Virus genome (UHGV): UHGV-0323647
Length of the DNA: 21,157 nt
Direction: 5' to 3' (one strand)
Origin: a virus
The notes beneath the pieces are model-generated. The model worked only from the letters and a program-made list of their open reading frames with translations, was not told where the DNA came from and ran no database searches. The translations under genes and the position numbers were made by a program. Positions 1,239 to 15,601 of the stretch are shown piece after piece; within the stretch, counting starts at the first letter, position 1; every line of letters starts with the position of its first letter.

Positions 1239-1261
1239 AATAACGATTAAGTGAGATGAAT

Positions 1262-1684
1262 ATGGCGACTGAACCAAAAGCTGGTCGCCCCTCTGATTAT
1301 ATGCCGGAGGTGGCTGACGATATCTGCTCGTTGCTTTCTTCTGGCGAAAGTTTGCTGAAAGTATGTAAGCGTCCTGGTATGCCGGATAAGTCCACTGTTT
1401 TCCGCTGGTTGGCAAAGCATGAGGATTTTCGCGACAAGTACGCGAAGGCAACTGAGGCACGAGCTGATTCTATTTTCGAAGAGATATTCGAAATTGCTGA
1501 CACTGCGATTCCAGATGCTGCTGAGGTGGCAAAGGCAAGACTTCGCGTTGATACCCGCAAATGGGCGCTGGCCCGAATGAATCCCCGTAAGTATGGCGAC
1601 AAGGTAACTAACGAGCTTGTCGGTAAGGACGGCGGCGCAATTCAGATTGAAACATCACCGATGAGCACTCTATTCGGAAAATGA
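1262..1684 (+). CDS. terS: terminase small subunit (Sf6 gp1-like TerS)
   Basis: Product MATEPKAGRPSDYMPEVADDICSLL... matches my recollection of the Sf6-type small terminase (about 140 aa). Two in-frame ATGs at 1256 and 1262; I chose 1262. Stop overlaps the terL start (ATGA at 1681-1684). Confidence 0.85.
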   Translation: MATEPKAGRPSDYMPEVADDICSLLSSGESLLKVCKRPGMPDKSTVFRWLAKHEDFRDKYAKATEARADSIFEEIFEIADTAIPDAAEVAKARLRVDTRKWALARMNPRKYGDKVTNELVGKDGGAIQIETSPMSTLFGK

Positions 1685-3096
1685 CCTCGATTAATCCTAT
1701 CTTTGAACCGTTCATTGAGGCGCATCGCTACAAAGTCGCCAAAGGCGGTCGAGGTAGCGGTAAATCATGGGCAATTGCGAGGCTGCTTGTTGAAGCGGCG
1801 CGTCGGCAGCCAGTGCGTATTCTCTGCGCTCGTGAACTGCAAAACAGTATCAGCGATTCGGTAATCCGGCTGCTTGAAGATACTATCGAGCGTGAAGGGT
1901 ATTCGGCTGAGTTTGAAATTCAGCGTTCAATGATTCGCCATCTCGGAACGAACGCTGAATTCATGTTCTACGGCATCAAAAACAACCCAACGAAGATTAA
2001 ATCGCTCGAAGGCATTGATATCTGCTGGGTGGAAGAAGCGGAAGCGGTAACAAAGGAATCGTGGGATATCCTGATACCAACCATCCGCAAGCCGTTTTCC
2101 GAAATATGGGTGAGCTTTAACCCGAAGAACATCCTCGACGATACCTATCAGCGATTCGTTGTAAACCCTCCTGATGATATTTGCCTGCTGACGGTGAACT
2201 ACACCGACAACCCGCACTTTCCTGAAGTTCTCCGTCTGGAGATGGAAGAGTGTAAACGCAGAAATCCGACACTATATCGTCACATCTGGCTTGGTGAGCC
2301 AGTGAGCGCAAGTGACATGGCAATCATCAAACGTGAATGGCTTGAAGCCGCAACCGATGCGCACAAGAAACTCGGATGGAAAGCGAAAGGCGCTGTTGTT
2401 TCTGCGCATGACCCATCAGATACAGGGCCAGATGCTAAAGGTTATGCATCGCGCCACGGTTCGGTTGTTAAGCGCATTGCCGAAGGTCTGCTGATGGATA
2501 TCAACGAGGGTGCTGACTGGGCTACTTCGCTGGCAATTGAAGACGGCGCTGACCATTACCTGTGGGATGGTGATGGCGTCGGTGCGGGCCTACGCAGACA
2601 GACAACGGAAGCGTTCTCCGGCAAGAAAATCACCGCCACGATGTTCAAGGGCAGTGAATCGCCATTCAATGAAGATGCACCGTATCAAGCCGGAGCATGG
2701 GCTGATGAAGTCGTACAGGGTGACAACGTTCGCACTATTGGCGATGTATTCCGCAATAAGCGAGCGCAATTCTATTACGCGCTGGCTGACAGGCTGTATC
2801 TGACATATCGGGCGGTTGTTCACGGTGAGTATGCAGACCCCGACGACATGCTGAGTTTCGACAAAGAAGTGATAGGCGAGAAGATGCTGGAGAAGCTGTT
2901 TGCAGAACTGACGCAGATTCAGCGCAAATTCAATAACAACGGGAAGCTGGAGCTTATGACTAAGGTCGAAATGAAGCAGAAGCTCGGTATTCCATCTCCT
3001 AACCTGGCTGATGCGCTGATGATGTGTATGCATTGCCCGGAGTCGGCTGCGCAACCCGACTATTCCAGTTACTCAATTCCTTGTGGTGTAGGTTGA
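1681..3096 (+). CDS. terL: terminase large subunit (TerL: ATPase plus nuclease)
   Basis: 471 aa. Walker A P-loop KGGRGSGKS near the N-terminus. Size and position immediately after terS and before portal are typical; translationally coupled to terS. Confidence 0.93.
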   Translation: MTSINPIFEPFIEAHRYKVAKGGRGSGKSWAIARLLVEAARRQPVRILCARELQNSISDSVIRLLEDTIEREGYSAEFEIQRSMIRHLGTNAEFMFYGIKNNPTKIKSLEGIDICWVEEAEAVTKESWDILIPTIRKPFSEIWVSFNPKNILDDTYQRFVVNPPDDICLLTVNYTDNPHFPEVLRLEMEECKRRNPTLYRHIWLGEPVSASDMAIIKREWLEAATDAHKKLGWKAKGAVVSAHDPSDTGPDAKGYASRHGSVVKRIAEGLLMDINEGADWATSLAIEDGADHYLWDGDGVGAGLRRQTTEAFSGKKITATMFKGSESPFNEDAPYQAGAWADEVVQGDNVRTIGDVFRNKRAQFYYALADRLYLTYRAVVHGEYADPDDMLSFDKEVIGEKMLEKLFAELTQIQRKFNNNGKLELMTKVEMKQKLGIPSPNLADALMMCMHCPESAAQPDYSSYSIPCGVG

Positions 3097-3097
3097 T

Positions 3098-5296
3098 ATG
3101 GCAGAAAAAAAGATGACTGACTGGCATCGCAAGGTGCTGTGCAACTTTGATAATGCCTGGTCAGCAACGCAGGATATGCGTGAGCAGATTATTGAGGCTC
3201 AACGTTTCGTCAGGGTGTCCGGCGCACAGTGGGAAGGCAGCACAAACGCTGGTTACTCATTTGATGAAGGCAGGTTTGAGCATTATCCGCGTTTTGAACT
3301 GAATAAGATTGCCCGTGAATGTGATCGCATCATTGGCGAGTATCGACAGAATCGCATCAGCGTTAAATTCAGGCCGAAGGACGATAAGGCATCGGAAGCG
3401 TTAGCCGAAAAGATGAACGGCAAATTCCGCGCTGACTATCAGGAAACATCCGGTGGCGAAGCGTGTGATAACGCATTTGATGATGCTGTAACGGGCGGAT
3501 TCGGTTGTTTCCGCATGTGTGCCGATTACGAAGATGAAATGGATCCGAGTAACGAGCAGCGCCGCATCAGCCTTCTTCCTGTTTACGACCCAGCAACATG
3601 CGTCTTCTTCGATCAGGACAGCAAGCAATATGACCGCTCTGATGCTATGTGGGCTATGGAAATGTTCTCCATGACGCCCAAAGCGTTCGAGGCTGAATAC
3701 CCTGATTCCACCGCGGCAAGCCTTTCTCGTGATGACACTGGCACTCAATATGACTGGTCAACGCCCGATGCCATCTATGTTGGACGCTACTACGAAGTTC
3801 GCATAGAGAAGGTGAAGCTCACGGCGTGGCGCAACCCTGTTAGCGGAGAAACGGCAATCTATGATGAAGAGCAAATCAAAGATATTGTCGACGAGCTAAC
3901 CGATGGCTCATTCGAACTGATTGGCGAGCGAACGGTGAAGAAACGCCGAGTTTATTGCGGTCTTCTGTCTGGCGCTGAATGGCTGGAAGAACCGAAGCGT
4001 ATTCCGGGTGAACATATTCCTCTCATCCCGGTATATGGGCGTCGCTCATTTGTTGATAATCAGGAGCGAATCGAAGGCCACGCAGCAAAAGCGATGGATG
4101 CACAGCGTCTTGAGAACCTGATGGTTTCCATGATTGCAGATAACGCTACTCAGGCTGGCGGTGATGGCATTCCTATCGTGGATGTTGATTTCATTCCCGG
4201 TCCATTAATGAATCACTGGGCAGAGAGGAATAAGAAAAGACCTGCAGTTCTTCCCATGACCAGCAAGAAGGACAAAAACGGAACGGTCATTTCAGAGGCT
4301 CAGGTTGCTGGCTGGACACCTCCGACACAAATGCCACCTGCTCTTGCCGGGCTATTGCAGTACACCGGAACGGCTATTCAGCAAATTACAGGTGCGTCGC
4401 AGCTTGAGAACATGCCGAGCAACGTCGCTACCGATACCGTTGATAGCATCTTTAACCGGATGGATACGCAGTCCTATATCTACATGGACAACATGGCTAA
4501 ATCCATGCGTCGCGCTGGCGTTGTGTGGCTTTCTATGGCGCGTGAGGTCTATGGCAGTGATACGCCGATGCGTATCGTTAATGAGGACGGCAGCGATGAC
4601 GTGGCGCTGATGACTGGTGAAGTGGTTGACCGTCAGACAGGGCAGGTTATCGCGCTTAACGACCTTTCGCAGGGCAACTATGAAGTGACTGTCGATGTCG
4701 GTCAGTCGTTCGCTACTCGCCGTGATGCAACTGTTAAGTCGTTACTTTCCATGCTGGCACTTATCCCACCGGGAACGCCGAAGCACGACCTTGTATCGTC
4801 GATGATTCTTGACAATATGGACGGCGAAGGGATGGACGACCTTAAAGAATACAACCGCAATCAGTTGCTTCTGTCTGGAGTTATCAAACCGAGAACGCCA
4901 GAAGAGCAGCAGATGGTTGAGCAGGCGAAACAACAACAGGCCAGTCAGCCAGATCCGGCTATGGTTGCTGCGCAAGGTCAGCTTCTTGCTGGTCAGGCTG
5001 AATTGCAGAAAGCGCAGAACGAGCAGGCAGCCATTCAGGTTAAAGCATTCCAGGCACAGACTGATGCTCAGGTTGCAGCGGCAAACGTTGTGAAAATCCT
5101 CGCATCTGCTGATAGCCAGCAAAAATCTGATATCCGTGAGGCGCTGAAACTGCTCGGACAGTTCCAGCAACAGCAAGGAGATAATGCCCGTGCTGATGCA
5201 GAGCTTGTCCTGAAAAGTCAGGCACAGGGCCATGCGCAGCGCATGGACATCAGCAGCATCCTGCAAAAATCAACTCAGCAACAACCACAGCAGTAA
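3098..5296 (+). CDS. portal protein (P22 gp1-like)
   Basis: 732 aa ORF starting 2 nt after the terL stop. Size matches P22-type portals (about 725 aa). Long Gln/Ala-rich helical C-terminal extension as in the P22 portal barrel. Confidence 0.92.
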   Translation: MAEKKMTDWHRKVLCNFDNAWSATQDMREQIIEAQRFVRVSGAQWEGSTNAGYSFDEGRFEHYPRFELNKIARECDRIIGEYRQNRISVKFRPKDDKASEALAEKMNGKFRADYQETSGGEACDNAFDDAVTGGFGCFRMCADYEDEMDPSNEQRRISLLPVYDPATCVFFDQDSKQYDRSDAMWAMEMFSMTPKAFEAEYPDSTAASLSRDDTGTQYDWSTPDAIYVGRYYEVRIEKVKLTAWRNPVSGETAIYDEEQIKDIVDELTDGSFELIGERTVKKRRVYCGLLSGAEWLEEPKRIPGEHIPLIPVYGRRSFVDNQERIEGHAAKAMDAQRLENLMVSMIADNATQAGGDGIPIVDVDFIPGPLMNHWAERNKKRPAVLPMTSKKDKNGTVISEAQVAGWTPPTQMPPALAGLLQYTGTAIQQITGASQLENMPSNVATDTVDSIFNRMDTQSYIYMDNMAKSMRRAGVVWLSMAREVYGSDTPMRIVNEDGSDDVALMTGEVVDRQTGQVIALNDLSQGNYEVTVDVGQSFATRRDATVKSLLSMLALIPPGTPKHDLVSSMILDNMDGEGMDDLKEYNRNQLLLSGVIKPRTPEEQQMVEQAKQQQASQPDPAMVAAQGQLLAGQAELQKAQNEQAAIQVKAFQAQTDAQVAAANVVKILASADSQQKSDIREALKLLGQFQQQQGDNARADAELVLKSQAQGHAQRMDISSILQKSTQQQPQQ

Positions 5297-5386
5297 TTAA
5301 CCCATAACGTGCAATGGCTGTCTTTATGAGGCCTGGCACCCTATTGCCTTCCGATGGGCTGAACATCGAGTAAACAGGGGTAACAA

Positions 5387-6280
5387 ATGGACCAGATGGC
5401 AGAAAACACACCAGAAGTTGAAATCGAAACCGACGCGTCAGAGCAGATTCCTGATGATGTCGAACTGGCTGAAGAAGTCGAAACAGAAGATGGCAGTGAG
5501 TCCTCTGGCAATGATGCAGAGGAAGCTACTGAAACTGATGACGACGAATCAGAACAGGAATTCTACTTTGGTGACGAAAAGCTGGATTCGCCAACCAGCG
5601 AAGATAGCGCAGAGCATGGACTGGTAAAACACCTGCGCAAGACGATTAAAGAGAAAGACCGTGAGCTGAAAGAGCTGATGCGTCAGTCTCAGAAACCCGT
5701 CGAGCAGCAGCCGGTAATCACTCAACCACCGCGAATGCCAAAACTGGATGATGAGGACATCGGTTTCGATGAAGAAATCTACCAGCAACGCATGGCTAAG
5801 TGGGCAGAGGATAACGGCAAGTACCAGCAACAGGAGATGGCTCGCAAGCAGAAGGAGCAGGAGCTTCAGGCTGCCTATCAAGAGCGATTATCCAAATATC
5901 AGCAACGTGTTAAGGCTCTCAAAGTTCCTGGCTATCAGGAAGCTGAGCAGGCCGTACTCGAGGAAATCCCCATCGAGACACAAAACGCGATCCTGTTTGA
6001 GTCAGAGAAGCCGGAAATCGTTGTTCTGGCGCTCGGTCGCAACGCTGAACTGCGCAAGCAACTGGCAGAAGCTACCAACCCCGTAGCAATTGGTCGTCTG
6101 CTGGAACGTATCGAATCGAAGGCCAGAATCATGCCAAAAGCAAAAACCACGGCAGCCACAACCCCGACAGTTAAGGGGAGCAACGGCGCAGTAATCAACA
6201 ACCTCGACAAACTGAAAGCCAAGGCGCTGGAAACTGGTGACTGGACGCCGTATTTCGCCGCTAAAAAGGCAAAAAAATAA
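5387..6280 (+). CDS. scaffolding protein (P22 gp8-like)
   Basis: 297 aa, highly acidic N-terminus (many D/E), charged helical middle, basic C-terminal tail (...FAAKKAKK). Sits between portal and coat. Confidence 0.85.
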   Translation: MDQMAENTPEVEIETDASEQIPDDVELAEEVETEDGSESSGNDAEEATETDDDESEQEFYFGDEKLDSPTSEDSAEHGLVKHLRKTIKEKDRELKELMRQSQKPVEQQPVITQPPRMPKLDDEDIGFDEEIYQQRMAKWAEDNGKYQQQEMARKQKEQELQAAYQERLSKYQQRVKALKVPGYQEAEQAVLEEIPIETQNAILFESEKPEIVVLALGRNAELRKQLAEATNPVAIGRLLERIESKARIMPKAKTTAATTPTVKGSNGAVINNLDKLKAKALETGDWTPYFAAKKAKK

Positions 6281-6298
6281 CCTATCGGAGCATTAAGC

Positions 6299-7552
6299 AT
6301 GGCTAACCAATTAGCAAAAGACCTTGAAATCATGTTCGAAAACTACGTTGAAGGCTTTGAGGCCGCCTGCGTAGTTTCCCGTAACGCTAAAAAATTCCGT
6401 CCCGGTGATACTGCAATGCAGCGAGCAGGTGATGTTCTGTATCGTCCGCAGCATTACCACATGAACATTGAAGAAGGCCTCGATCTCAGCAGCAAAACAC
6501 CAACAGCACTGGTTCAGCGCCTTGTTCCTTCTGTGTTCAAGGAGCCGAAAAACATTCTGTACACTCTGGATGCGCGTGAAATGCGTGACCCTGAACATAA
6601 AACTGAAGCTGGTCGCGCCGCAGGTATGCGCCTTGCTGCACAGATTGACTCTGACCTGATTTCCATGGTTACGCAGCGTGCTACTAACGTGATCACGATG
6701 GCTGACTCAACCACAGGTTCACAGGGCCGTGATTTGTGGAACTGTGCGGCAGGTATTGATGCCACTATGACGGCGATTGGTGTACCGCAGGGTATCAACC
6801 GTCGCTCTTTCTGGAACCCCTTCAACTACAAAGACCTTGCTGGCGAGCTTGGTCACCGTGCCTATGCTCAGGGTGCAACCCTGACAGCATACGAAAAAGC
6901 GCAAATCCCTCCGGTTGCGTCCTTCGATAGCTACAAGACCGATATTTCTGGTCGTGTTCCGAAGGGTACAGCAACTTCCATTGCGCTGGCAGCAGCACCT
7001 GCGCACAAGGTTGAAGCGAAAGATGCTAACGATATGCCAGTGGATAACCGACAGGGGACCATTACGGTATCTGCTGAAGGTTTGCAGGTTGGTGATGCGT
7101 TCACCATCGCAGGGGTGAATTCCGTACACCAGATCACCAAAGATACCACCGGGCAGCCGCAGGTATTCCGCGTTCTGGCAGTAAGCGGAACGACAGTAAC
7201 TATCTCCCCGAAAATTCTGCCGCCTGACAACGCGGATGTCGCCAGCCGACCATATGCAAACGTTGATGCTAACGCGGCAAATAGCGCAGCAATCACCATT
7301 CTCAACAAGAACGCAGCACCTGCTAACCTGTTCTGGGCTGATGGTTCTGTTGAGCTGATGTACGGCAAACTGGCGTTCCCGACTGGTCAGGGTCCACAGG
7401 TAATGACAGCAACCACCGAGCAGGGCGCTACGCTGATCATGTCTTACGCCTTCGACCACATCAAAGGCGTAACCACTGCTCGTTTCACCACTCTGTATGG
7501 TTGCTCTGTACTTGTTCCTGAATATACGGGCATCGTTATTGCCGGGCAGTAA
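6299..7552 (+). CDS. major capsid (coat) protein (P22 gp5-like, HK97 fold)
   Basis: 417 aa ORF with GGAG 10 nt upstream of ATG 6299. Position after scaffold and size close to P22/Sf6 coat (about 420-430 aa). Followed by an intrinsic terminator. Confidence 0.9.
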   Translation: MANQLAKDLEIMFENYVEGFEAACVVSRNAKKFRPGDTAMQRAGDVLYRPQHYHMNIEEGLDLSSKTPTALVQRLVPSVFKEPKNILYTLDAREMRDPEHKTEAGRAAGMRLAAQIDSDLISMVTQRATNVITMADSTTGSQGRDLWNCAAGIDATMTAIGVPQGINRRSFWNPFNYKDLAGELGHRAYAQGATLTAYEKAQIPPVASFDSYKTDISGRVPKGTATSIALAAAPAHKVEAKDANDMPVDNRQGTITVSAEGLQVGDAFTIAGVNSVHQITKDTTGQPQVFRVLAVSGTTVTISPKILPPDNADVASRPYANVDANAANSAAITILNKNAAPANLFWADGSVELMYGKLAFPTGQGPQVMTATTEQGATLIMSYAFDHIKGVTTARFTTLYGCSVLVPEYTGIVIAGQ

Positions 7553-7557
7553 TTTTG

Positions 7558-7582
7558 GTGGGGCTTCGGCCCCATTTTTATT
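7558..7582 (+). terminator. rho-independent terminator/attenuator just after the coat gene
   Basis: GGGGC-TTCG-GCCCC hairpin (7560-7573) followed by ATTTTTATT, 8 nt after the coat stop codon. Confidence 0.6.
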
Positions 7583-7593
7583 GGGAGAAGACA

Positions 7594-7782
7594 ATGGCAC
7601 GAACAATGCTCTATAAGCCTGGCAACATGATCACCTGTGGTCAGTTTGCTGTCGATTACATCATTGTTGATGACGAAGAAGTTAAATCTCACCTGAAAAA
7701 AGGTTGGGTAAAAACTCCTGAAGAAACCGCAACGAAGCAAAAAGTGGCTAAGGCGGAAGAAGATGGCGAAAACGAAGGGTGA
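7594..7782 (+). CDS. small hypothetical virion-module protein (62 aa)
   Basis: ATG at 7594 preceded by GGGAGAAG. The ORF-track start at 7555 (no ATG there; first in-frame ATG is 7594) lies inside the terminator hairpin and is unlikely. Acidic C-terminus. Overlaps the next gene by 20 nt. Confidence 0.5.
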   Translation: MARTMLYKPGNMITCGQFAVDYIIVDDEEVKSHLKKGWVKTPEETATKQKVAKAEEDGENEG

Positions 7783-8224
7783 TCTCGTTCTAAAGGCTTT
7801 ACGAAAAGCCGGGCTGTATTCCAATGCCACGTTGACAGATGCTGACCCTCAGGCAATTGAAGATGCTATTAATGACCTCGAAGACATGATGGCAGCATGG
7901 CAGGCGAAAGGTATCGAGCTTGGGTATCAGTTTGCTGATACAGAAAACGGCATCATGCCGTTACCTGACGATGATTCAGGTATCCCTGCATGGGCAAATG
8001 ATGGCGTCGCTTTGAAACTCGCTGTGCAAGTGTGCATGGATAACGTCATTCAGCCATCAGACGCTCTCCTTACCGCTGCTGACAGTGCATATCAAACAAT
8101 CTGTATCGCTTTAACCAAAATACCACCACTTGAGCGGCGAAATGACATGCCTCGCGGTAGTGGTAACAAAAGCGCGTTTACGTGGAATCGGTTTTACATC
8201 GAGAAAGATGATCCGAGTACGTGA
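7763..8224 (+). CDS. head-completion / tail-adaptor protein (P22 gp4-like)
   Basis: 153 aa. N-terminus AKTKGDLVLKALRKAG...TLTD...DLEDMMAAW and C-terminal ...MPRGSGN... resemble P22 gp4 as I recall it. Correct position after coat. Confidence 0.85.
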   Translation: MAKTKGDLVLKALRKAGLYSNATLTDADPQAIEDAINDLEDMMAAWQAKGIELGYQFADTENGIMPLPDDDSGIPAWANDGVALKLAVQVCMDNVIQPSDALLTAADSAYQTICIALTKIPPLERRNDMPRGSGNKSAFTWNRFYIEKDDPST

Positions 8225-8233
8225 GGTGAATAA

Positions 8234-9652
8234 ATGCCGATTCAGCAACTTCCGCTTATGAAAGGCGTCGGCAAAGACTTTCGAAACGCCGACTATATCG
8301 ACTATCTGCCAGTGAATATGTTGGCTACACCAAAAGAAATCCTTAACAGCAGCGGATATCTTCGCTCATTCCCGGGCATTGCCAAACGTTCTGATGTGAA
8401 CGGCGTATCGCGCGGCGTCGAGTACAACATGGCGCAGAGTGCTGTTTATCGCGTGTGTGGTGGGAAGCTCTACAAAGGCGAAAGTGAAGTCGGTGATGTT
8501 GCCGGAAGTGGTCGCGTATCAATGGCGCATGGTCGGACATCTCAGGCTGTAGGCGTTAATGGTCAACTGGTCGAGTATCGCTATGATGGCACGGTTAAAA
8601 CCGTCTCAAACTGGCCTACTGATAGCGGATTCACTCAGTATGAGTTAGGTTCAGTCCGCGACATTACACGCTTACGTGGGCGTTATGCGTGGTCAAAAGA
8701 CGGCACGGATTCATGGTTTATCACTGACCTTGAAGACGAATCGCATCCTGACCGTTACAGCGCACAATATCGCGCAGAATCGCAGCCGGACGGTATCCTC
8801 GGCATCGGAACATGGCGAGACTTCATCGTCTGCTTTGGTTCATCGACGATTGAATATTTTTCCCTGACTGGGGCAACCACCGTTGGTGCCGCTTTGTATG
8901 TCGCACAGCCATCTCTTATGGTGCAGAAAGGCATTGCCGGAACTTACTGCAAAACGCCGTTTGCTGATTCCTATGCGTTTATCAGCAATCCGGCAACAGG
9001 TGCTCCGTCTGTATACATCATCGGCTCCGGTCAGGTATCACCAATCGCCAGCGCGAGCATTGAGAAAATTCTCCGCTCCTACACTGCTGATGAACTGGCT
9101 GATGGCGTGATGGAATCGCTGCGATTTGATGCGCATGAGCTGCTGATTATCCATCTTCCGCGCCATGTTCTCGTGTACGACGCATCTTCAAGCGCCAATG
9201 GTCCGCAATGGTGTGTACTGAAAACAGGCTTGTATGACGATGTGTACCGCGCTATCGACTTCATTTACGAAGGAAATCAGATAACGTGCGGCGATAAGCT
9301 GGAATCGGTGACCGGGAAATTGCAGTTCGATATCAGCAGTCAGTACGACAAGCAGCAGGAACACCTGCTGTTTACTCCGTTGTTCAAAGCGGATAACGCC
9401 AGAGTGTTTGACCTTGAAGTTGAATCTTCAACTGGCGTTGCGCAGTACGCTGACCGCCTGTTCCTCTCTGCAACCACTGACGGCATCAATTACGGTCGTG
9501 AGCAGATGATTGAGCATAATGAACCGTTCGTTTACGACAAACGCGTTTTGTGGAAGCGTGTCGGGCGAATCAGGAAAAATGTTGGCTTCAAATTGCGCGT
9601 TATCACGAAGTCACCTGTCACTCTGTCTGGCTGTCAGATAAGGATTGAGTAA
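8234..9652 (+). CDS. head-completion / tail-hub protein (P22 gp10-like)
   Basis: 472 aa, the same length as P22 gp10. N-terminus [35 protein letters not shown] matches my recollection of gp10. GAGGTG upstream of the ATG. Confidence 0.9.
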
Positions 9653-10500
9653 TGGCGGATTCGAATCTCAATGTGCCGGTAATCATCCAAGCTACGCGGC
9701 TCGATACATCAGTTCTTCCACGCAATATCTTCTCGCAGTCATATCTGCTGTACGTTATCGCACAGGGTACTGATGTTGGTAACGTGGCGAACAAGGCCAA
9801 CGAGGCCGGACAGGGCGCTTATGATGCACAAGCCAGGAACGATGAGCAGGATGTGATTCTGGTCGATCACGAAATTCGACTGGCATCGGCTGAAGCGAAG
9901 ATTCAGGACCACGAAACAAGGATCACTAACGCAGAAGCGGCGATAGTCGGCCTTGATTCACGATTAACGACAGCAGAAAACGATATTGATTACCTGACTG
10001 ATGAAGTTGTCGCCATTCAAAACACGCTTTCCGACCATGAAACGCGCATCGATGCTCTGGAGTATGCCACTACTCGCAAGAAGTCAGAGGTTGTTTACTC
10101 TGGTGTATCTGTAACCATCCCGACAACGCCGACCAACCTTGTTAGCCTGCTGAAAACGCTCACGCCGTCATCCGGCTCGTTGACACCATTCTTCGACACC
10201 GTTAACAACAAGATGGTTGTGTTCAACGAGAACAAAACGCTGTTCTTCAAGCTGTCTATTGTCGGGGCGTGGCCCAGCGGAACCGCCAACAGGTCAATGC
10301 AGCTAACCTTTTCCGGCTCTGTTCCTGACACGTTGGTCAGCAGTCGTAATGCGGCGACAACAACCGACAACATCCTGTTAGCTACGTTCTTCAGCGTGGA
10401 TAAAGACGGCTTTCTTGCCACAAATGGCAGTACGTTAACCATTCAGTCGAATGGTGCGGCTTTTACTGCCACAACCATCAAGATAATCGCGGAGCAGTGA
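9652..10500 (+). CDS. tail needle / cell-envelope-penetrating protein (P22 gp26-like, with C-terminal knob as in Sf6-type needles)
   Basis: 282 aa. N-terminus [43 protein letters not shown] matches the gp26 hub-binding tip. Heptad-like coiled coil with repeated DHETRI. Start overlaps the gp10 stop (TAATG). Confidence 0.85.
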
Positions 10501-10955
10501 TGATTCAGTTCAAACCAACGCGAAACATCGACCTGATAGAAGCCGTGGGAAATCACCCAGACATTATCGCCGGGAGCAACAACGGTGATGGATACGACTA
10601 CAAACCTGATTGCCGTTACTTTGAGGTGAACGTGCACGGGCAGTTCGGCGGCATTGTTTACTATCAGGAGATTCAGCCGCTGACATTCGATTGCCACGCC
10701 ATGTACCTGCCAGAGATTCGCGGCTTCAGCAAGGAAATCGGGCTGGCGTTCTGGAGATACATTCTGACTAACACCACCGTTCAGTGCGTCACATCGTTCG
10801 CTGCACGCAAATTCCGCCACGGGCAGATTTACTGCGCAATGATTGGCCTTAAGCGTGTAGGAACCATCAAGAAATACTTCAAAGGCGTGGATGACGTGAC
10901 GTTTTACAGCGCCACACGCGAAGAACTAATCGACTTCCTGAATCACGGGAGATAG
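10500..10955 (+). CDS. gp14-like virion/ejection-associated protein
   Basis: ATG at 10500 overlapping the gp26 stop (TGATG), with GGAG 5 nt upstream. The ORF-track start at 10497 is a GTG. Position corresponds to P22 gene 14. Confidence 0.75.
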   Translation: MIQFKPTRNIDLIEAVGNHPDIIAGSNNGDGYDYKPDCRYFEVNVHGQFGGIVYYQEIQPLTFDCHAMYLPEIRGFSKEIGLAFWRYILTNTTVQCVTSFAARKFRHGQIYCAMIGLKRVGTIKKYFKGVDDVTFYSATREELIDFLNHGR

Positions 10956-10957
10956 CC

Positions 10958-11650
10958 ATGTTATATGCATTTAAACTGGGCAGAAAACTGCGCGGTGAGG
11001 AACCTTATTGCCCTGAAAAAGGCGGGAAAGGTGGCAGTTCTGATAAAAGCGCAAAGTATGCAGCAGAAGCTCAGAAGTATGCCGCAGACCTGCAAAATCA
11101 GCAGTGGCAGACGATCATGAAAAACCTTGCTCCGTTCACGCCTCTTGCGGAGCAGTATGTTAACCAGCTTCAGAACCTTTCCAGTCTAGAAGGTCAGGGG
11201 CAGGCACTTAATCAGTATTACAACTCTCAGCAGTATAAAGACCTTGCAGGTCAGGCTCGTTACCAGAGTCTTGCTGCTGCGGAGGCGACGGGTGGACTTG
11301 GTTCGACAGCCACAAGCAATCAACTGGCTACGATCGCGCCGACACTAGGTCAGTCTTGGTTATCAAATCAGATGAGCAATTACAACAATCTGGCAAACGT
11401 TGGGCTTGGTGCGCTGCAAGGTCAGGCAAACGCCGGGCAGACGTACGCCAACAACATGAGCAGCATTGCACAGCAAAGCGCAGCTCTTGCCGCTGCTAAT
11501 GCCAATAAACCATCAAGTCTTCAGACTGCAATTAGCGGTGGCACGTCTGGTGCGATTGCCGGTGCAGGTCTTGCCAGCCTTTTGGGAACATCAACACCTT
11601 GGGGCGCTGGAATTGGTGCTGGTATCGGATTGCTTGGCTCGTTGTTTTAA
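10958..11650 (+). CDS. ejection (internal virion) protein, gp7-like
   Basis: 230 aa. N-terminus MLYAFKLGRKLRGEEPYCPEKGGKGGSSDKSAKYAAEAQKY and Gly/Ala-rich hydrophobic C-terminus (...GAGIGAGIGLLGSLF) match P22 gp7 as I recall it. Confidence 0.75.
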   Translation: MLYAFKLGRKLRGEEPYCPEKGGKGGSSDKSAKYAAEAQKYAADLQNQQWQTIMKNLAPFTPLAEQYVNQLQNLSSLEGQGQALNQYYNSQQYKDLAGQARYQSLAAAEATGGLGSTATSNQLATIAPTLGQSWLSNQMSNYNNLANVGLGALQGQANAGQTYANNMSSIAQQSAALAAANANKPSSLQTAISGGTSGAIAGAGLASLLGTSTPWGAGIGAGIGLLGSLF

Positions 11651-11659
11651 GGGGTAATC

Positions 11660-12967
11660 ATGGCTACTTGGCAAGGAACAAACGGCGGATTGTTGGCTGG
11701 TATCGGCGGCGTCAACTCAAACGCTCCGAGCGTAAATGACATCGGCAATACGCTTCAGCTTATCAGGCAGAACAATGATATTGAGCGTTCAGGCGCTAAC
11801 AATGTTGGGCTGACTGCTTTGCAAGGTCTTCAGCAGGAAAAGCAGGCTCAGCGGCAGAAAGAATTTCAGCAGGCGTACGCTAATGCTTATGCGTCTGGTG
11901 ATCGCGGTGCTTTGCGTCAGTTGGCTACTCAATATCCAGACCAGATTGAATCCGTTCGTAAAGGCATGGGATTCATTGATGAAGATCAGCGTAATTCTAT
12001 CGGCACCTTAGCGGCTGGCGCACGCCTTGCGTCATCGTCTCCAGAAGCAATGCAATCATGGCTGCAAAACAACGCCAAGGAACTGACTCGCGTCGGTGTT
12101 GACCCTAATAACGTTGCTCAGATGTATCAGCAGAATCCTTCAGGATTTGGTGAGTTTGTTGATCACCTTGGAATGGCTGCGCTTGGTCCGATTGATTACT
12201 TCAATGTTCAGGATAAGATGGCAGATCGCCAGCTGACCATGCGCGGTCAGGATCTGAACTCGCAAACCGCCGCCCGGAATCAGGCAATCACAATGCGTGG
12301 GCAAGATATCCAGGCAAATTTAGGTCAGCAGCGCATTAATCTGGACGCAGAAACAAACCGCATTAACTACGAAAATAAGCGCCTTGACCGGATGCTATCA
12401 GCAGAAACTAACGACCTGAAGCGCCAGGAAATACAGAGCCGCATAGCAGCCAACAACCAGAAGTTGCAGCAGAAGCAGCAAGAGCTAAATGATGGCTACA
12501 AAGACGGCATCAACACTCTCACAACCAGCATGTTCACTCTGAACGATATCGTTAATTCTCCTGCACTTAAGAGCATTACAGGCTTACGTGGAGCAATCCC
12601 CAACGTTCCAGGCTCACAAGCTGCAGACACTCAGGCGCGACTTGATACCTTTAAATCCCAAGCATACCTGACAGCGGTTCAGGCCATGAAAGGACTTGGT
12701 GCACTTTCTGATGCCGAGGGCAAAAAGCTCGACCAGGCTGTTGGTTCGCTGCAGAACTCGCAGAGCGAGGAGTCCTTTCGTCGCAACGCTGGCGTCATCC
12801 TGAACACGCTCAACCAGAAGCGTAATGAGGCGGTTGGTAAGTACGTTCAGCAAAACGGTATCAAGCGAGTGGAAGCGCCTCAGGCTTCTATAGATTACCT
12901 GAAGCAGCACCCCGAGCTGTCAATCGACTTCATTAATCGCTACGGATATCTTCCATCTTTGGGGTAG
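11660..12967 (+). CDS. ejection (internal virion) protein, gp20-like
   Basis: 435 aa, Gln/Asn-rich low-complexity helical protein, second of three consecutive ejection-protein genes. GGGG upstream of the ATG. Confidence 0.7.
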   Translation: MATWQGTNGGLLAGIGGVNSNAPSVNDIGNTLQLIRQNNDIERSGANNVGLTALQGLQQEKQAQRQKEFQQAYANAYASGDRGALRQLATQYPDQIESVRKGMGFIDEDQRNSIGTLAAGARLASSSPEAMQSWLQNNAKELTRVGVDPNNVAQMYQQNPSGFGEFVDHLGMAALGPIDYFNVQDKMADRQLTMRGQDLNSQTAARNQAITMRGQDIQANLGQQRINLDAETNRINYENKRLDRMLSAETNDLKRQEIQSRIAANNQKLQQKQQELNDGYKDGINTLTTSMFTLNDIVNSPALKSITGLRGAIPNVPGSQAADTQARLDTFKSQAYLTAVQAMKGLGALSDAEGKKLDQAVGSLQNSQSEESFRRNAGVILNTLNQKRNEAVGKYVQQNGIKRVEAPQASIDYLKQHPELSIDFINRYGYLPSLG

Positions 12968-12970
12968 TAA

Positions 12971-15601
12971 ATGGCTAATTACCGTGATTTGTTAGAGCAG
13001 GCTGGCGCACGTTACGGTGTGCCAGAAGGGTTGATGACTGCACTGGGTGCCAAGGAGTCTTCTTACAACCCTGCAGCAGTAAGCTCCTCCGGGGCTGTAG
13101 GATTGACTCAGGTCATGCCTGGGACATGGCGTGATATGGGTTATACCGATGAGCAAATGCAAAACCCCGAATATCAGGCTGACGCTGGCGCGCGCTATCT
13201 GGCAAAGATGTACCAGCAGTTTGGTAACTGGCGTGACGCTCTTCAGGCTTATCACGACGGTCCCGGCAACGTTATGAAGGCAAAGCGTGGTGAATATACG
13301 CCAGGACCTGAAGGCCGCGGTTACGTTGATGATCGCTTTGCTCAATGGGCGGGTGACCCGGTGACAGACTCAACAGTCGAACAGCGCGCCACCTCTGCAA
13401 AGGTACATCCTCAGCAAGACCCTAACAACCCGTTTGCACAACTGGAAGTACAGTCATCCGAACAAGTATCGGCATCAGGTGTGCAGTCAGACCCAAATAA
13501 TCCATTTGCTCAGATTGAGCAGCAGGCAGCCAGTCAGCAGCCACCTCAACCCGTAAGTTCTGTCGCACCGAAACCTGTTCAGCAACAAACAGTTAATCAG
13601 GCCAATAATGAACCAGCACGTGAAGAACCATCATTGATGCAACAAGCTGGCGATTGGCTCACAGGTGGTCAAAGTGCAGGGCAAATTGCAGAGCAGGCTG
13701 GTCGTGGTCTGGTAAACATACCATTTGACGTATTGCAGGGTGGCGCAAGTCTGATTAATGCAATCAGCCAGGGGCTTGGTGGCCCCAAGGTTTTGGATGA
13801 TGTTTATCGTCCAGTAGATCGACCGACAGACCCCTACGCGCAAGCCGGTGAAACAATTGGCGGGTATCTCCTGCCAATTGGTACAGCGGCAAAAGCTGCT
13901 GGAGCGCCAGCAAAGCTCGCTGGAGATATCGGTTCCGCAGGAAACATGATTGCAGGTTCTCTTGCTGATGCTGCAAATCAGGAGGGCGACTTTGCACAAA
14001 ATGCTGCCATTAACGGTGGTATCAATATTGGTGCTCAAGGCGTTCTTTCAGGTGTCGGGCGCGTTATTGCGCCAAGGGTTTCACATGCTCTTGGTGGTGC
14101 AGCACTGAATTCTGCTAATGATGTTTCCAGGATGGCAAAGTCAGGTGCTGGGCGTCAGTCAATTGCCAGTCAGGCCGCTAATGTGTCCGAAGGTGTAGCA
14201 AAAGCGGCTGAGTCTGCTGGAATTGATATAAACGCATTAACACCAGGAATGCGATCTGGAAGTCGTGGAATTGCACAAGCCGAAGGCGCATTGGCATCAA
14301 CACCAGGAATTGTTCAGGACGCCCATCAGACAGCATTTAACGAAATATCATCAAAGTTAAGTCGAAACCTTGATGAATTTGGGGCCGCATCTGGAACGGC
14401 ATCAGAAAAAAGTGCGGCTATAAAACAAAGGATTCTTCAAAATCTTGATCAGATGAAGGATGCCGAGCGCGCGGCATGGGATGACGTGCGGTCAACAATG
14501 CCAAATCAAAAAGCAAGAATGCTAAATGGTAATGCCGTTATTCAGGCAGAGCGATCTGCTGGCATACCGCTTACTCCTGAAATGAAACAGTTTGTTCAGG
14601 CAAACAATCAAGGTGGAGTAACATTTGATGGCATGAAAGCATGGAGAGCGAAATTTGCTGATGCGGAGCAAAAATATAAGCGTAGCGGAGAGGCAAATGC
14701 GGCAAGGAGAGCAGGGGAAATACGCCGGGCAATTACTGATGATATGCGCACAATGGCGGAAAACGGCGGATTTCTTGATGACTGGCAGAAAGCTAATGAT
14801 CTGTCTAAAGCGAGGTTATCAGCACAAGAGAGTGCAGAGTCTGTTTTCGGGCGTGATTTGGCAACAGATGCACTGATTACGAATGGAGTAAAATCCCTTC
14901 AATCATCGTCAGCTAAAGGTCTTAATGGTCCTGCTGGGTTCCATTCTATGATCCGCGCGCTGCCAGAATCAGAGCGTGTTCCTGCTATATCATCAATGTT
15001 GCAAGATGCTATCTCGCATGGTGTACGTGGTGGCAAAGCTGATGCAGCAGGAATTAACCATATCGCAGGGATACTTACCCCACAAAATGTAAAAGCCATT
15101 AGCAGATATTCCTCAGATCTCGGAAGAATTGCTGATGCATATGGCACTCTTGCAAGAGCAGCAGTGAAACCTCAGCAGTATATTGAAAGAACAGGGAGAA
15201 CTGCCAATGTACTACGCGATCTGGATGCTGGTTTATCCAACGTCACATCAACAGTGTTAAATGCAATTGCCAACTCAACATCAGGTGCCATTGTTGGTGG
15301 AGCAGGAGGGGGCATTGCAGGCGCTGCCGCAGGTGCTTTAGTTGGCGCCGGGTTAAAAGGTGCTGTATCTAAAATTGCCACCACACGTAGTGGTCGGTAT
15401 GCGATAGAGAAAGCAGTTCAGGAAGCAACTAAAGCAGTAAGAGCAGGCGGAAGTAAAGAAGCATTAGCGGCGGCGGAACGCAGATTTATGGCAAATAAAG
15501 CTGCCGTAAAAGCGATACGTGATACAGTCGGAAACGAAGAGTTCAATCGCTTAGCGAGGGCTGGCATTGTAGCGTCGCTAAGCGGAATAGCACAGGAGTA
15601 A
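12971..15601 (+). CDS. ejection (internal virion) protein, gp16-position, with N-terminal lytic-transglycosylase (SLT)-like domain
   Basis: 876 aa. The N-terminal roughly 110 aa carry SLT-family motifs (GAKESSYNP with candidate catalytic Glu, [18 protein letters not shown]). The remainder is Ala/Gly/Gln-rich with a hydrophobic Gly-rich segment ([22 protein letters not shown]). Confidence 0.8.

Follow-up and report, generated by a model that had tools for sequence, protein, structure and literature searches.

The stretch of DNA analysed here (the window) comprises 21,157 nucleotides (nt) of the virus genome UHGV-0323647. We studied the leader between its portal and scaffold genes, for which we report a predicted, widely conserved RNA pseudoknot in the messenger RNA (mRNA). 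Its late (head) genes are those of a CUS-3-like phage within the P22-like group, and positions 5000-5700 are 98-99% identical to CUS-3, Sf101, Kapi1 and eight further phage records. The product of the scaffold open reading frame (ORF) shares 99% identity with proteins named 'scaffolding protein' in the sources and with the CUS-3 scaffold protein. From the portal stop codon and the scaffold start codon (Table 1), the gap between the two genes is exactly 90 nt, and an identical portal-scaffold gap is annotated in CUS-3 (CP000711). According to the ORF list and the CUS-3 annotation, all remaining junctions in the module (1256-15601) overlap or measure 1-41 nt, making this gap the longest. The original prediction had singled out the junction for this separation, and the coordinates bear it out.

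Conservation and predicted fold of the leader

Relatives of the scaffold protein formed a graded series from 99% down to 51% identity and came from Escherichia, Salmonella, Citrobacter, Serratia, Providencia, Proteus, Xenorhabdus, Yersinia and Symbiopectobacterium; a scan of genome contigs with a single protein as query returned two near-identical loci only. The gap measures 87-97 nt in every CUS-3-type head module examined, down to a scaffold identity of 51%. Among approximately 155 near-identical loci it is 90 nt, with the exception of locus L125, where it amounts to 93 nt because an earlier portal stop codon arises there. The leader was the same as in the window in 126 of these loci, and the few single-base variants recorded among the ~155 loci lie mostly at 5334-5341.

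Over 12 diverse relatives, the mean pairwise identity was 0.96 for positions 5342-5356 and 0.89 for 5357-5371, compared to 0.62 in coding sequence (300 nt each of portal and scaffold) and 0.45 when third codon positions are taken alone. Positions 5342-5371 are the most conserved 30 nt within a 690-nt stretch. Hence, the 3′ half of the leader is the most constrained sequence of its neighbourhood, and with a conservation far above that of the coding flanks and a length kept at 87-97 nt, the gap is not a chance feature. Three blocks are invariant in the CUS-3-type alignment, CUAUUGCC(U)UCCGAUGGGC, AUCGAGU and AGGGGU; the GGGGU at the scaffold ribosome-binding site (RBS) is invariant throughout this family.

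Comparison of the leaders predicts that positions 5345-5370 of the sense-strand mRNA, in the 3′ third of the leader, form a compact H-type pseudoknot. In the window it would consist of stem S1 with 3-4 base pairs (bp), loop L1 with 2 nt, stem S2 with 6 bp and loop L3 with 3-4 nt; as the 3′ strand of stem S1 is made up of the first bases of the S2 loop, the length of L2 is 0. The core of stem S1 pairs GCC (5346-5348) with GGC (5357-5359), and in most relatives the stem is UGCC/GGCA. Pairing within the two stems explains the invariance of UUGCCUUCCGAUGGGC. The 3′ edge of the pseudoknot is located 18 nt ahead of the scaffold AUG and about 8 nt ahead of the Shine-Dalgarno (SD) sequence in the window, and the distance from the S2 3′ end to the ATG is 17-18 nt in the CUS-3 type. 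When 5285-5410 was folded as a single sequence, its stability did not exceed that of shuffled versions (z=+0.65), so the element becomes visible only by comparison. Population data revealed 13 distinct variable sites in the 90-nt leader; the stems, with their ~20 bases, contain none of these sites, and L3 contains one (G5361T). By our hypergeometric estimate this distribution has a P of ~0.03 and is consistent with the pseudoknot.

Two alignments served for the covariation analysis, A4 with 19 sequences and A10 with 63 distinct sequences. On A4, stem S2 is essentially always paired and has 13 compensatory cells, a number reached by 0 of 500 shuffles; controls slid along the same alignment were 13-43% paired, and an extra pair outside S2 (8-35) was unpaired in 11 of the 19 sequences. 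On A10, 99.5% of the S2 cells are paired, and at each of four of the six pairs 20-29 sequences are compensatory. All 63 sequences have the same outermost two C-G pairs of S2, C5351-G5370 and C5352-G5368 (columns 11-39 and 12-37). The bulged base is A in 57 of the 63 and C in the other six, which are Murray, Skarpretter, Sortsne and STP9 rows (L003, L200, L201, L203, L204 and L213).

For stem S1, one fixed register on A10, which does not suit every group, gave 77% paired cells with two-sided changes at all five pairs. The covariation score of A10 was 0.536 compared to 0.183±0.015 after shuffling (0 of 500), and slid controls were 27-43% paired. Independently of a register, the best S1 helix averaged 4.12 bp over 67 distinct elements, versus 2.70±0.13 bp when flanks and loops were exchanged between loci (maximum 3.09 in 2000 permutations); with 38 representatives the values were 3.82 and 2.46±0.18 bp. 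In total, 43 different S1 pair types were recorded. The 63 elements having stem S1 possess an L1 of 1-3 nt, no L2, an L3 of 2-8 nt (mostly 3-5 nt) and an S2 of 6-8 bp. Hence, the order S1a-L1-S2a-S1b-L3-S2b of an H-type pseudoknot is present, both stems covary, and the loops are long enough to span the stems, L1 crossing S2 and L3 crossing S1. The frequent G-U pairs place the structure on the sense RNA. The covariation analysis among P22-like phages that the original prediction had proposed as part of its check came out in favour of a conserved leader with two covarying stems.

Table 1 Features at and around the portal-scaffold leader of the window
Feature	Position	Strand	Remarks
Small terminase gene	1256-1684		PF20901
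Large terminase gene	1681-3096		
Portal gene	3098-5296	+	732-amino-acid ORF; PF16510 (P22_portal), E=8e-170; stop codon TAA 5294-5296
Portal-scaffold leader	5297-5386	+	90 nt
Hairpin P1 (tentative)	5316-5333	+	GGCUGUC [UUUAU] GAGGCC, 5316-5322 with 5328-5333; RNAalifold consensus
Variable linker	5334-5341	+	UGGCACCC; between P1 and the pseudoknot, site of most population variants
Predicted S1, 5′ strand	5345-5348	+	UGCC; flank-loop complementarity permutations and A10 pair counts
Predicted L1	5349-5350	+	UU
Predicted S2, 5′ strand	5351-5356	+	CCGAUG; C5351 pairs with G5370 across bulged A5369
Predicted S1, 3′ strand	5357-5360	+	GGCU; first bases of the S2 hairpin loop
Predicted L3	5361-5363	+	GAA; A/U-rich in relatives; G5361T is the sole population variant of the element
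Predicted S2, 3′ strand	5364-5370	+	CAUCG 5364-5368, bulged A5369, G5370
Single-stranded spacer with SD sequence	5371-5386	+	UAAACA, SD GGGG (5377-5380), UAACAA
Scaffold gene	5387-6280	+	297-amino-acid ORF; ATG 5387, preceded by AGGGG 5376-5380
P22-type coat gene	6299-7552		PF11651
Terminator-like hairpin	7557-7576	+	GGUGGGGCUUCGGCCCCAUU, then a U run; in the 41-nt gap after the coat gene

Distribution among P22-type head modules

The S2 hairpin, CGAUG[GGCUGAA]CAUCG (5352-5368) in the window, is shared beyond the CUS-3 type. At locus L177 (42% scaffold identity), S2 is CGGUG/CACUG and S1 is GCUC/GAGC. In Sf6, HK620 and phiSG1, S2 reads CGGCA/UGCCG and lies within the 3′ end of the portal gene (Sf6 S1, AGUC/GACU), while APSE-1 has CUGCG/CGCAG (APSE S1, AGUU/GACU). 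Lytic phages of the Murray, Sortsne, Skarpretter and Hungario types and STP9 carry CGAUG/CAUCG in leaders of 120-145 nt (Murray S1, CGCC/GGCG). S2 is CGCG/CGCG in Firinga, with CAUGCUU/GAGCAUG as S1, CAUCA/UGAUG in PfAn1, and CACCCA or CGCCCA with UGGGUG in the Manatee Spring phages MW202867 and MW202475; P22 has a 4-bp hairpin, CGGC/GCCG. Further examples of S1 are GCGGU/GCCGC, AUGGC/GCCAU and AGGC/GCCU, and an environmental example reads ACGGC au CCACCCA GCCGU ucuaa UGGGUG AGU.

In all these outgroups, the C before the stem pairs with the G after a single bulged A or C, and in all lineages the stem ends 16-27 nt before the scaffold ATG. This distance is constant and that to the upstream gene is variable: the element starts 49 nt after the portal stop codon in the window, overlaps the last portal codons in Sf6, HK620 and P22, and is found in other lineages within portal-scaffold gaps of 32-112 nt. 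It is kept whether a non-coding gap, the portal gene end or, in the lytic phages, a terminator-like hairpin lies upstream. Structure, position and the key bases CC...G-A/C-G-U are conserved ahead of the scaffold gene in P22-type coat/scaffold head modules, from Enterobacterales prophages and lytic phages of the Murray, Sortsne and Skarpretter types to phages of Ralstonia, Pseudomonas, Shewanella and Stutzerimonas.

A covariance model built from CUS-3-type leaders alone (R1) was run with filters off on 49.7 kb from 17 outgroup loci. It gave 13 matches at E<=10, 12 of them exactly upstream of a scaffold ATG, including HK620 with 27.7 bits (E=3e-4) and Sf6 (E=4e-3). P22, Firinga, PfAn1, MW202475 and MW202867 were missed by R1 and by a further model, R2, which also missed the environmental group; these lineages therefore rest on pair counts and on a descriptor, which requires CC, then a stem with 4 bp or more, a loop with 6-14 nt and G-[A/C]-G, the end being located 16-27 nt upstream of the ATG. 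The descriptor is present in all five model-missed lineages, with a chance expectation of 0.7-4.4% per locus in this 12-nt interval.

The descriptor was then applied unchanged to a blind set of 80 new IMG/VR loci collected via the distant-scaffold alignment A7, with scaffolds 38-71% identical to that of PfAn1; Shewanella phage ZP9 was added to them. The scaffold starts were predicted independently of the element, and one locus lacked a usable start. The descriptor was found within the 12-nt interval in 58 of the 80 loci tested, versus 1.3% expected per locus (nominal binomial P 2e-90). Most misses had the element at 11-15 nt from the predicted start. The stems in this set were diverse and included CACCCA, CGCCUA, CACGCA, CAGCU, CGCUAA, CAUCC and CACUCGG among others.

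The wide distribution also bears on the length of the leader, which the original prediction had treated as the telling feature. Sf6, HK620 and phiSG1 possess the pseudoknot with a gap of 13 nt, as does APSE despite its short gap, so the length of 90 nt is incidental. The gap between P22 genes 1 and 8 is likewise 13 nt, and with such gaps in P22 and Sf6 a long leader is not part of the system to which the prediction had referred.

Several of these loci had peculiarities of their own. Shewanella phage ZP9 (L221, 720-754), whose scaffold is 37% identical to that of the window, has the leader CCGAUGGGACUAAACAUCGAGUAAAAAACAGGGGUAAUCAUG, which is near the CUS-3 version, with a compensatorily changed stem S1 (GUCC/GGAC). 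In ST231, three small hypothetical genes lie between portal and scaffold, and small hypothetical genes also precede the scaffold leader in the Murray-, Sortsne-, Skarpretter- and Hungario-type phages (L003, 328-1120; L200-L205, L214). The leaders of these lytic phages begin with a terminator-like hairpin (e.g. L200, 534-560), followed by the same pseudoknot.

Candidate role in scaffold synthesis

The feedback on scaffold synthesis in P22 has been a textbook case of assembly-coupled gene control since 1978-85. The P22 scaffold protein, encoded by gene 8, is autoregulated post-transcriptionally (Wyckoff & Casjens 1985; Casjens & Adams 1985, both as cited in PMC5529062), and this control must therefore act via some site on the gene 8 mRNA. 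The N-terminal part of the protein is implicated in this control (bioRxiv 10.1101/2022.12.13.520362; references 52 and 53 in PMC5529062). In the literature we found, no RNA target of the feedback is described, and nothing relevant emerged on hairpins or pseudoknots ahead of scaffold genes, nor on RNA processing in the P22 late operon. The window shares with P22 the gene family and the position in the late operon. The feedback is known from P22 genetics, whereas CUS-3, Sf6 and the lytic relatives are known here from sequence.

We infer that the pseudoknot is a cis-acting control element for the initiation of scaffold translation; as such, it is the first concrete candidate site for the control of scaffold synthesis. 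Among the possible roles we rank first, tentatively, that of an operator at which free scaffold protein represses its own translation. The original prediction had proposed that the leader may carry this operator. The idea receives partial support: a conserved structured RNA is present at the 5′ edge of the scaffold RBS, where an operator is expected, but the length of the gap proved irrelevant, and P22 itself lacks both the long leader and the full pseudoknot. Free, unassembled scaffold protein would bind its own mRNA at the 30S binding site, on the side of the platform, and would reduce initiation and, as a secondary effect, mRNA stability. Scaffold output would thereby be coupled to capsid assembly, a coupling that genetics has demonstrated in P22. 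As the RNA-binding part of the protein we suggest, speculatively, a basic helix that is conserved in its N-terminal third. Stated in full, and with somewhat greater reserve, the pseudoknot might be the long-missing operator, to which free scaffold binds through the basic helix at the CC...G-A-G-U element on the platform and so stops its own translation.

Four observations led us to this ranking. The element goes with the scaffold gene and not with the upstream context; the invariant CC...G-A/C-G-U, together with the bulge, is suggestive of specific recognition; in P22, scaffold is the only late protein for which feedback on its own translation is known; and all scaffold types share the basic helix, (W/L)VKxLRKxxKE..REL, which in P22 is FARRRIERKRQRELEQ. 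Moreover, the structured element sits in the gene's own leader, within or beside the 30S site, with its 3′ edge 16-27 nt from the AUG. The segment encoding the helix spans 5612-5680 in the window (scaffold amino acids ~76-98) and was likewise observed at L001, L002, L200, L207, L209, L212 and L221. It directly follows the non-conserved acidic N-terminus and is a possible RNA-binding segment.

A number of points weigh against this role. Functional data are limited to P22, the very phage with a 4-bp hairpin only. This hairpin, uC CGGC[AGUGUA]GCCG A GA, has the same flanks and ends 27 nt before the AUG; it is weak, no stem S1 was found in P22-type phages, and both covariance models miss P22. The acidic N-terminal region of the scaffold differs from type to type. 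For the scaffold RBS, an accessibility of 0.51 is predicted, an ordinary value compared to 0.22-0.60 for other late genes, so the RBS would not be masked by the structure on its own. The descriptor dates from after the inspection of 24 sequences that included the five model-missed lineages, and relatedness among the contigs inflates the binomial P of the blind test. Finally, a gene-specific structured leader fits a constitutive enhancer or stabiliser equally well.

Such a constitutive function, as a translational enhancer, RBS insulator or mRNA stabiliser to which no regulator binds, is the main rival and in our judgement a serious, if lesser, possibility. The pseudoknot could shield the RBS from upstream RNA, dock the 30S subunit on its platform or S1 side, or block RNase E scanning and 5′ decay, and scaffold and coat would then be made in hundreds of copies and portal in about a dozen from one transcript. 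Scaffold and coat are indeed high-copy products, the RBS does not appear to be sequestered, and the scaffold-coat pair is bracketed by the pseudoknot on the 5′ side and the strong terminator-like hairpin at 7557-7576 on the 3′ side, the latter matching the annotated 't coat' of Sf6 and an annotated stem-loop of P22. In the lytic Murray-, Sortsne- and Skarpretter-type phages, the element resides in a 120-145-nt leader behind the terminator-like hairpin and may thus lie near a transcript 5′ end, where stabilising structures act. However, a scan found no sigma-70 promoter in the leaders of the window or of IME_EC2, and the promoter TTGCAT-N18-TAAACT picked out by eye in Murray-type leaders fails the scan. 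For stabilisation a simple hairpin would be enough, while the invariant CC...G-(A/C)-G-U, the bulge and the pseudoknot geometry point to specific recognition. A scan of the window, including the regions before coat and the other late genes, found no second such element. Specific recognition could alternatively involve another partner, the candidates being the portal protein, the coat protein, a protein of the host or, as in a riboswitch, a small ligand. This we consider unlikely. Size and topology are akin to those of small ligand-binding pseudoknots, a few positions are invariant, and a portal/mRNA interaction has been proposed for portal incorporation in P22, with little experimental evidence according to PMC5529062. 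On the other hand, loops L1 and L3 are short and variable, a metabolite sensor before a capsid scaffold gene lacks an obvious rationale, and Rfam 15 (4227 models, including preQ1, SAM-II, SAM-V, fluoride, guanidine-III and phage RNAs) gave no match over 5297-5386 at E<=10, nor over the element in ten other representative loci at E<=1.

The gap could also encode a peptide or have no function. In the window, an upstream ORF (uORF) of 19 codons extends from ATG 5315 to TAA 5374 (MAVFMRPGTLLPSDGLNIE), ending 12 nt before the scaffold ATG, and its translation might be coupled to scaffold initiation; its frame is kept in L158 and L162, in both by a -1/+1 indel pair, and in L166. Yet, no SD sequence was found before 5315, the ATG is absent in L159, L168, L169, L171, L173 and L175, the frame is interrupted by indels in L160, L161 and L170, and the conservation pattern is at the nucleotide rather than the codon level. 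With the ATG lost in at least six lineages, the uORF is refuted as a conserved feature, and a leader peptide appears very improbable. Less credible still is a non-functional spacer or a recombination joint between exchangeable genes. The head genes of P22-like phages are mosaic, with divergent patches in portal and scaffold and a sometimes swapped coat gene, but there were 0 mosaic breakpoints in the leader, and its 3′ half is the region's most conserved segment and covaries; breakpoint positions, conservation and covariation refute the idea. As to the mosaicism itself, relatives that are otherwise 95-100% identical differ from the window in patches at ~4200-4299 (portal) and ~5800-5999 (scaffold), with 61-66% identity (L136-L155), and the coat gene is replaced in L136 and L148 (50-80% identity, ~6200-7650).

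Four further candidates were rejected. A stimulator of frameshifting or readthrough would require a fixed short spacing (~5-9 nt) after a slippery site or the upstream stop codon; it is excluded because the position relative to the upstream gene varies. An intrinsic terminator was not found on the + strand by a scan of 4800-5900, the hairpin being followed by AGUAAACAGGGG. The same region has no -35/-10 pair of a sigma-70 promoter at 16-18-nt spacing. A decayed longer portal C-terminus was set aside because the portal frame, read by eye, continues for just 10 codons before another stop, and because the conservation of the leader is that of an RNA.

If the pseudoknot is an operator for free scaffold protein, its closest functional analogues appear to be the leader pseudoknot of T4 gene 32 and the ribosomal-protein operators, and its closest structural analogues the small pseudoknot riboswitches. 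The pseudoknot in the T4 gene 32 mRNA leader is an autogenous translational operator. Like it, the element is an H-type pseudoknot in a phage mRNA, located 5′ of the RBS and followed by an unstructured A/U-rich stretch up to the SD sequence and AUG, and the protein under its control would be a structural or stoichiometric one, the free amount of which reflects how far a macromolecular process has advanced. Unlike it, the element is situated 16-27 nt from the AUG, whereas the T4 knot lies at a far greater distance upstream and is the nucleation site at which a single-strand-binding protein begins to bind cooperatively. The two sequences are not similar, and repression is putative in the present case. 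To our knowledge, the scaffold protein has no known nucleic-acid binding activity. The rpsO/S15 and alpha operon/S4 operators are likewise small pseudoknots at or next to the RBS on the 30S platform side. These are bound by the encoded protein, include the SD sequence or AUG and mimic rRNA sites, while the SD sequence and AUG lie outside the knot here and are predicted to be accessible. The preQ1-I/II/III, SAM-II/V, fluoride and guanidine-III riboswitches resemble the element as H-type structures of ~26-40 nt upstream of the RBS with a short L1 and an A/U-rich L3. The element differs from them by an L2 of 0, an S2 of 6-8 bp, its capsid scaffold context and the lack of a covariance-model match, and its loops are too short and variable for a ligand pocket. 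Hence, we regard it as a new RNA family among the cis-regulatory leader pseudoknots, absent from Rfam.

With its 26 nt, fixed position and wide distribution, the pseudoknot offers a precise, mutable candidate site that makes an old question directly testable. Should it be the operator, the state of capsid assembly would feed back on translation across a whole, widely distributed lineage of P22-type-headed phages, both temperate and lytic, through a new RNA family and a new class of RNA-binding viral assembly protein. Even as an enhancer or stabiliser it would constitute a new abundant cis-regulatory RNA family and a useful marker for annotating scaffold starts, and it may then explain how scaffold and coat are made far above portal from one late transcript.

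Other predicted structures and motifs

Upstream of the pseudoknot, the tentative hairpin P1 (Table 1) is specific to the CUS-3 family, and 95.6% of its cells pair; its substitutions mostly affect one side of the helix, and covariation does not reach significance. RNAalifold also offered helices that would cover the SD sequence, pairing either ACCC 5300-5303 with GGGU 5378-5381 or AUUGCCUU 5343-5350 with GGGGUAAC 5377-5384. Together, P1 and these anti-SD helices fit the family alignment (94% of cells paired), again with one-sided changes and without significant covariation. The anti-SD segment 5343-5350 is also required for stem S1.

Within the scaffold gene, all CUS-3-type relatives have the same nucleotides, GGCAGA, at 5398-5403 (codons 4-6), although codons 2-4 encode differing amino acids among them; codon 4 ends in G in every case, and Ala5 is encoded by GCA throughout. 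This motif could pair with UUGCC 5344-5348 in competition with stem S1 (the L177 counterpart is AUGCU/AGCA). Alternatively, its invariance may just reflect a conserved AEN peptide.

Elsewhere in the window, the gene starting at 11660 has an RBS, AAGGGGUAAUCAUG at 11627-11662 on the + strand, that closely resembles the scaffold RBS of some relatives; the region gave a weak, hairpin-less match of 13 bits to model R1.

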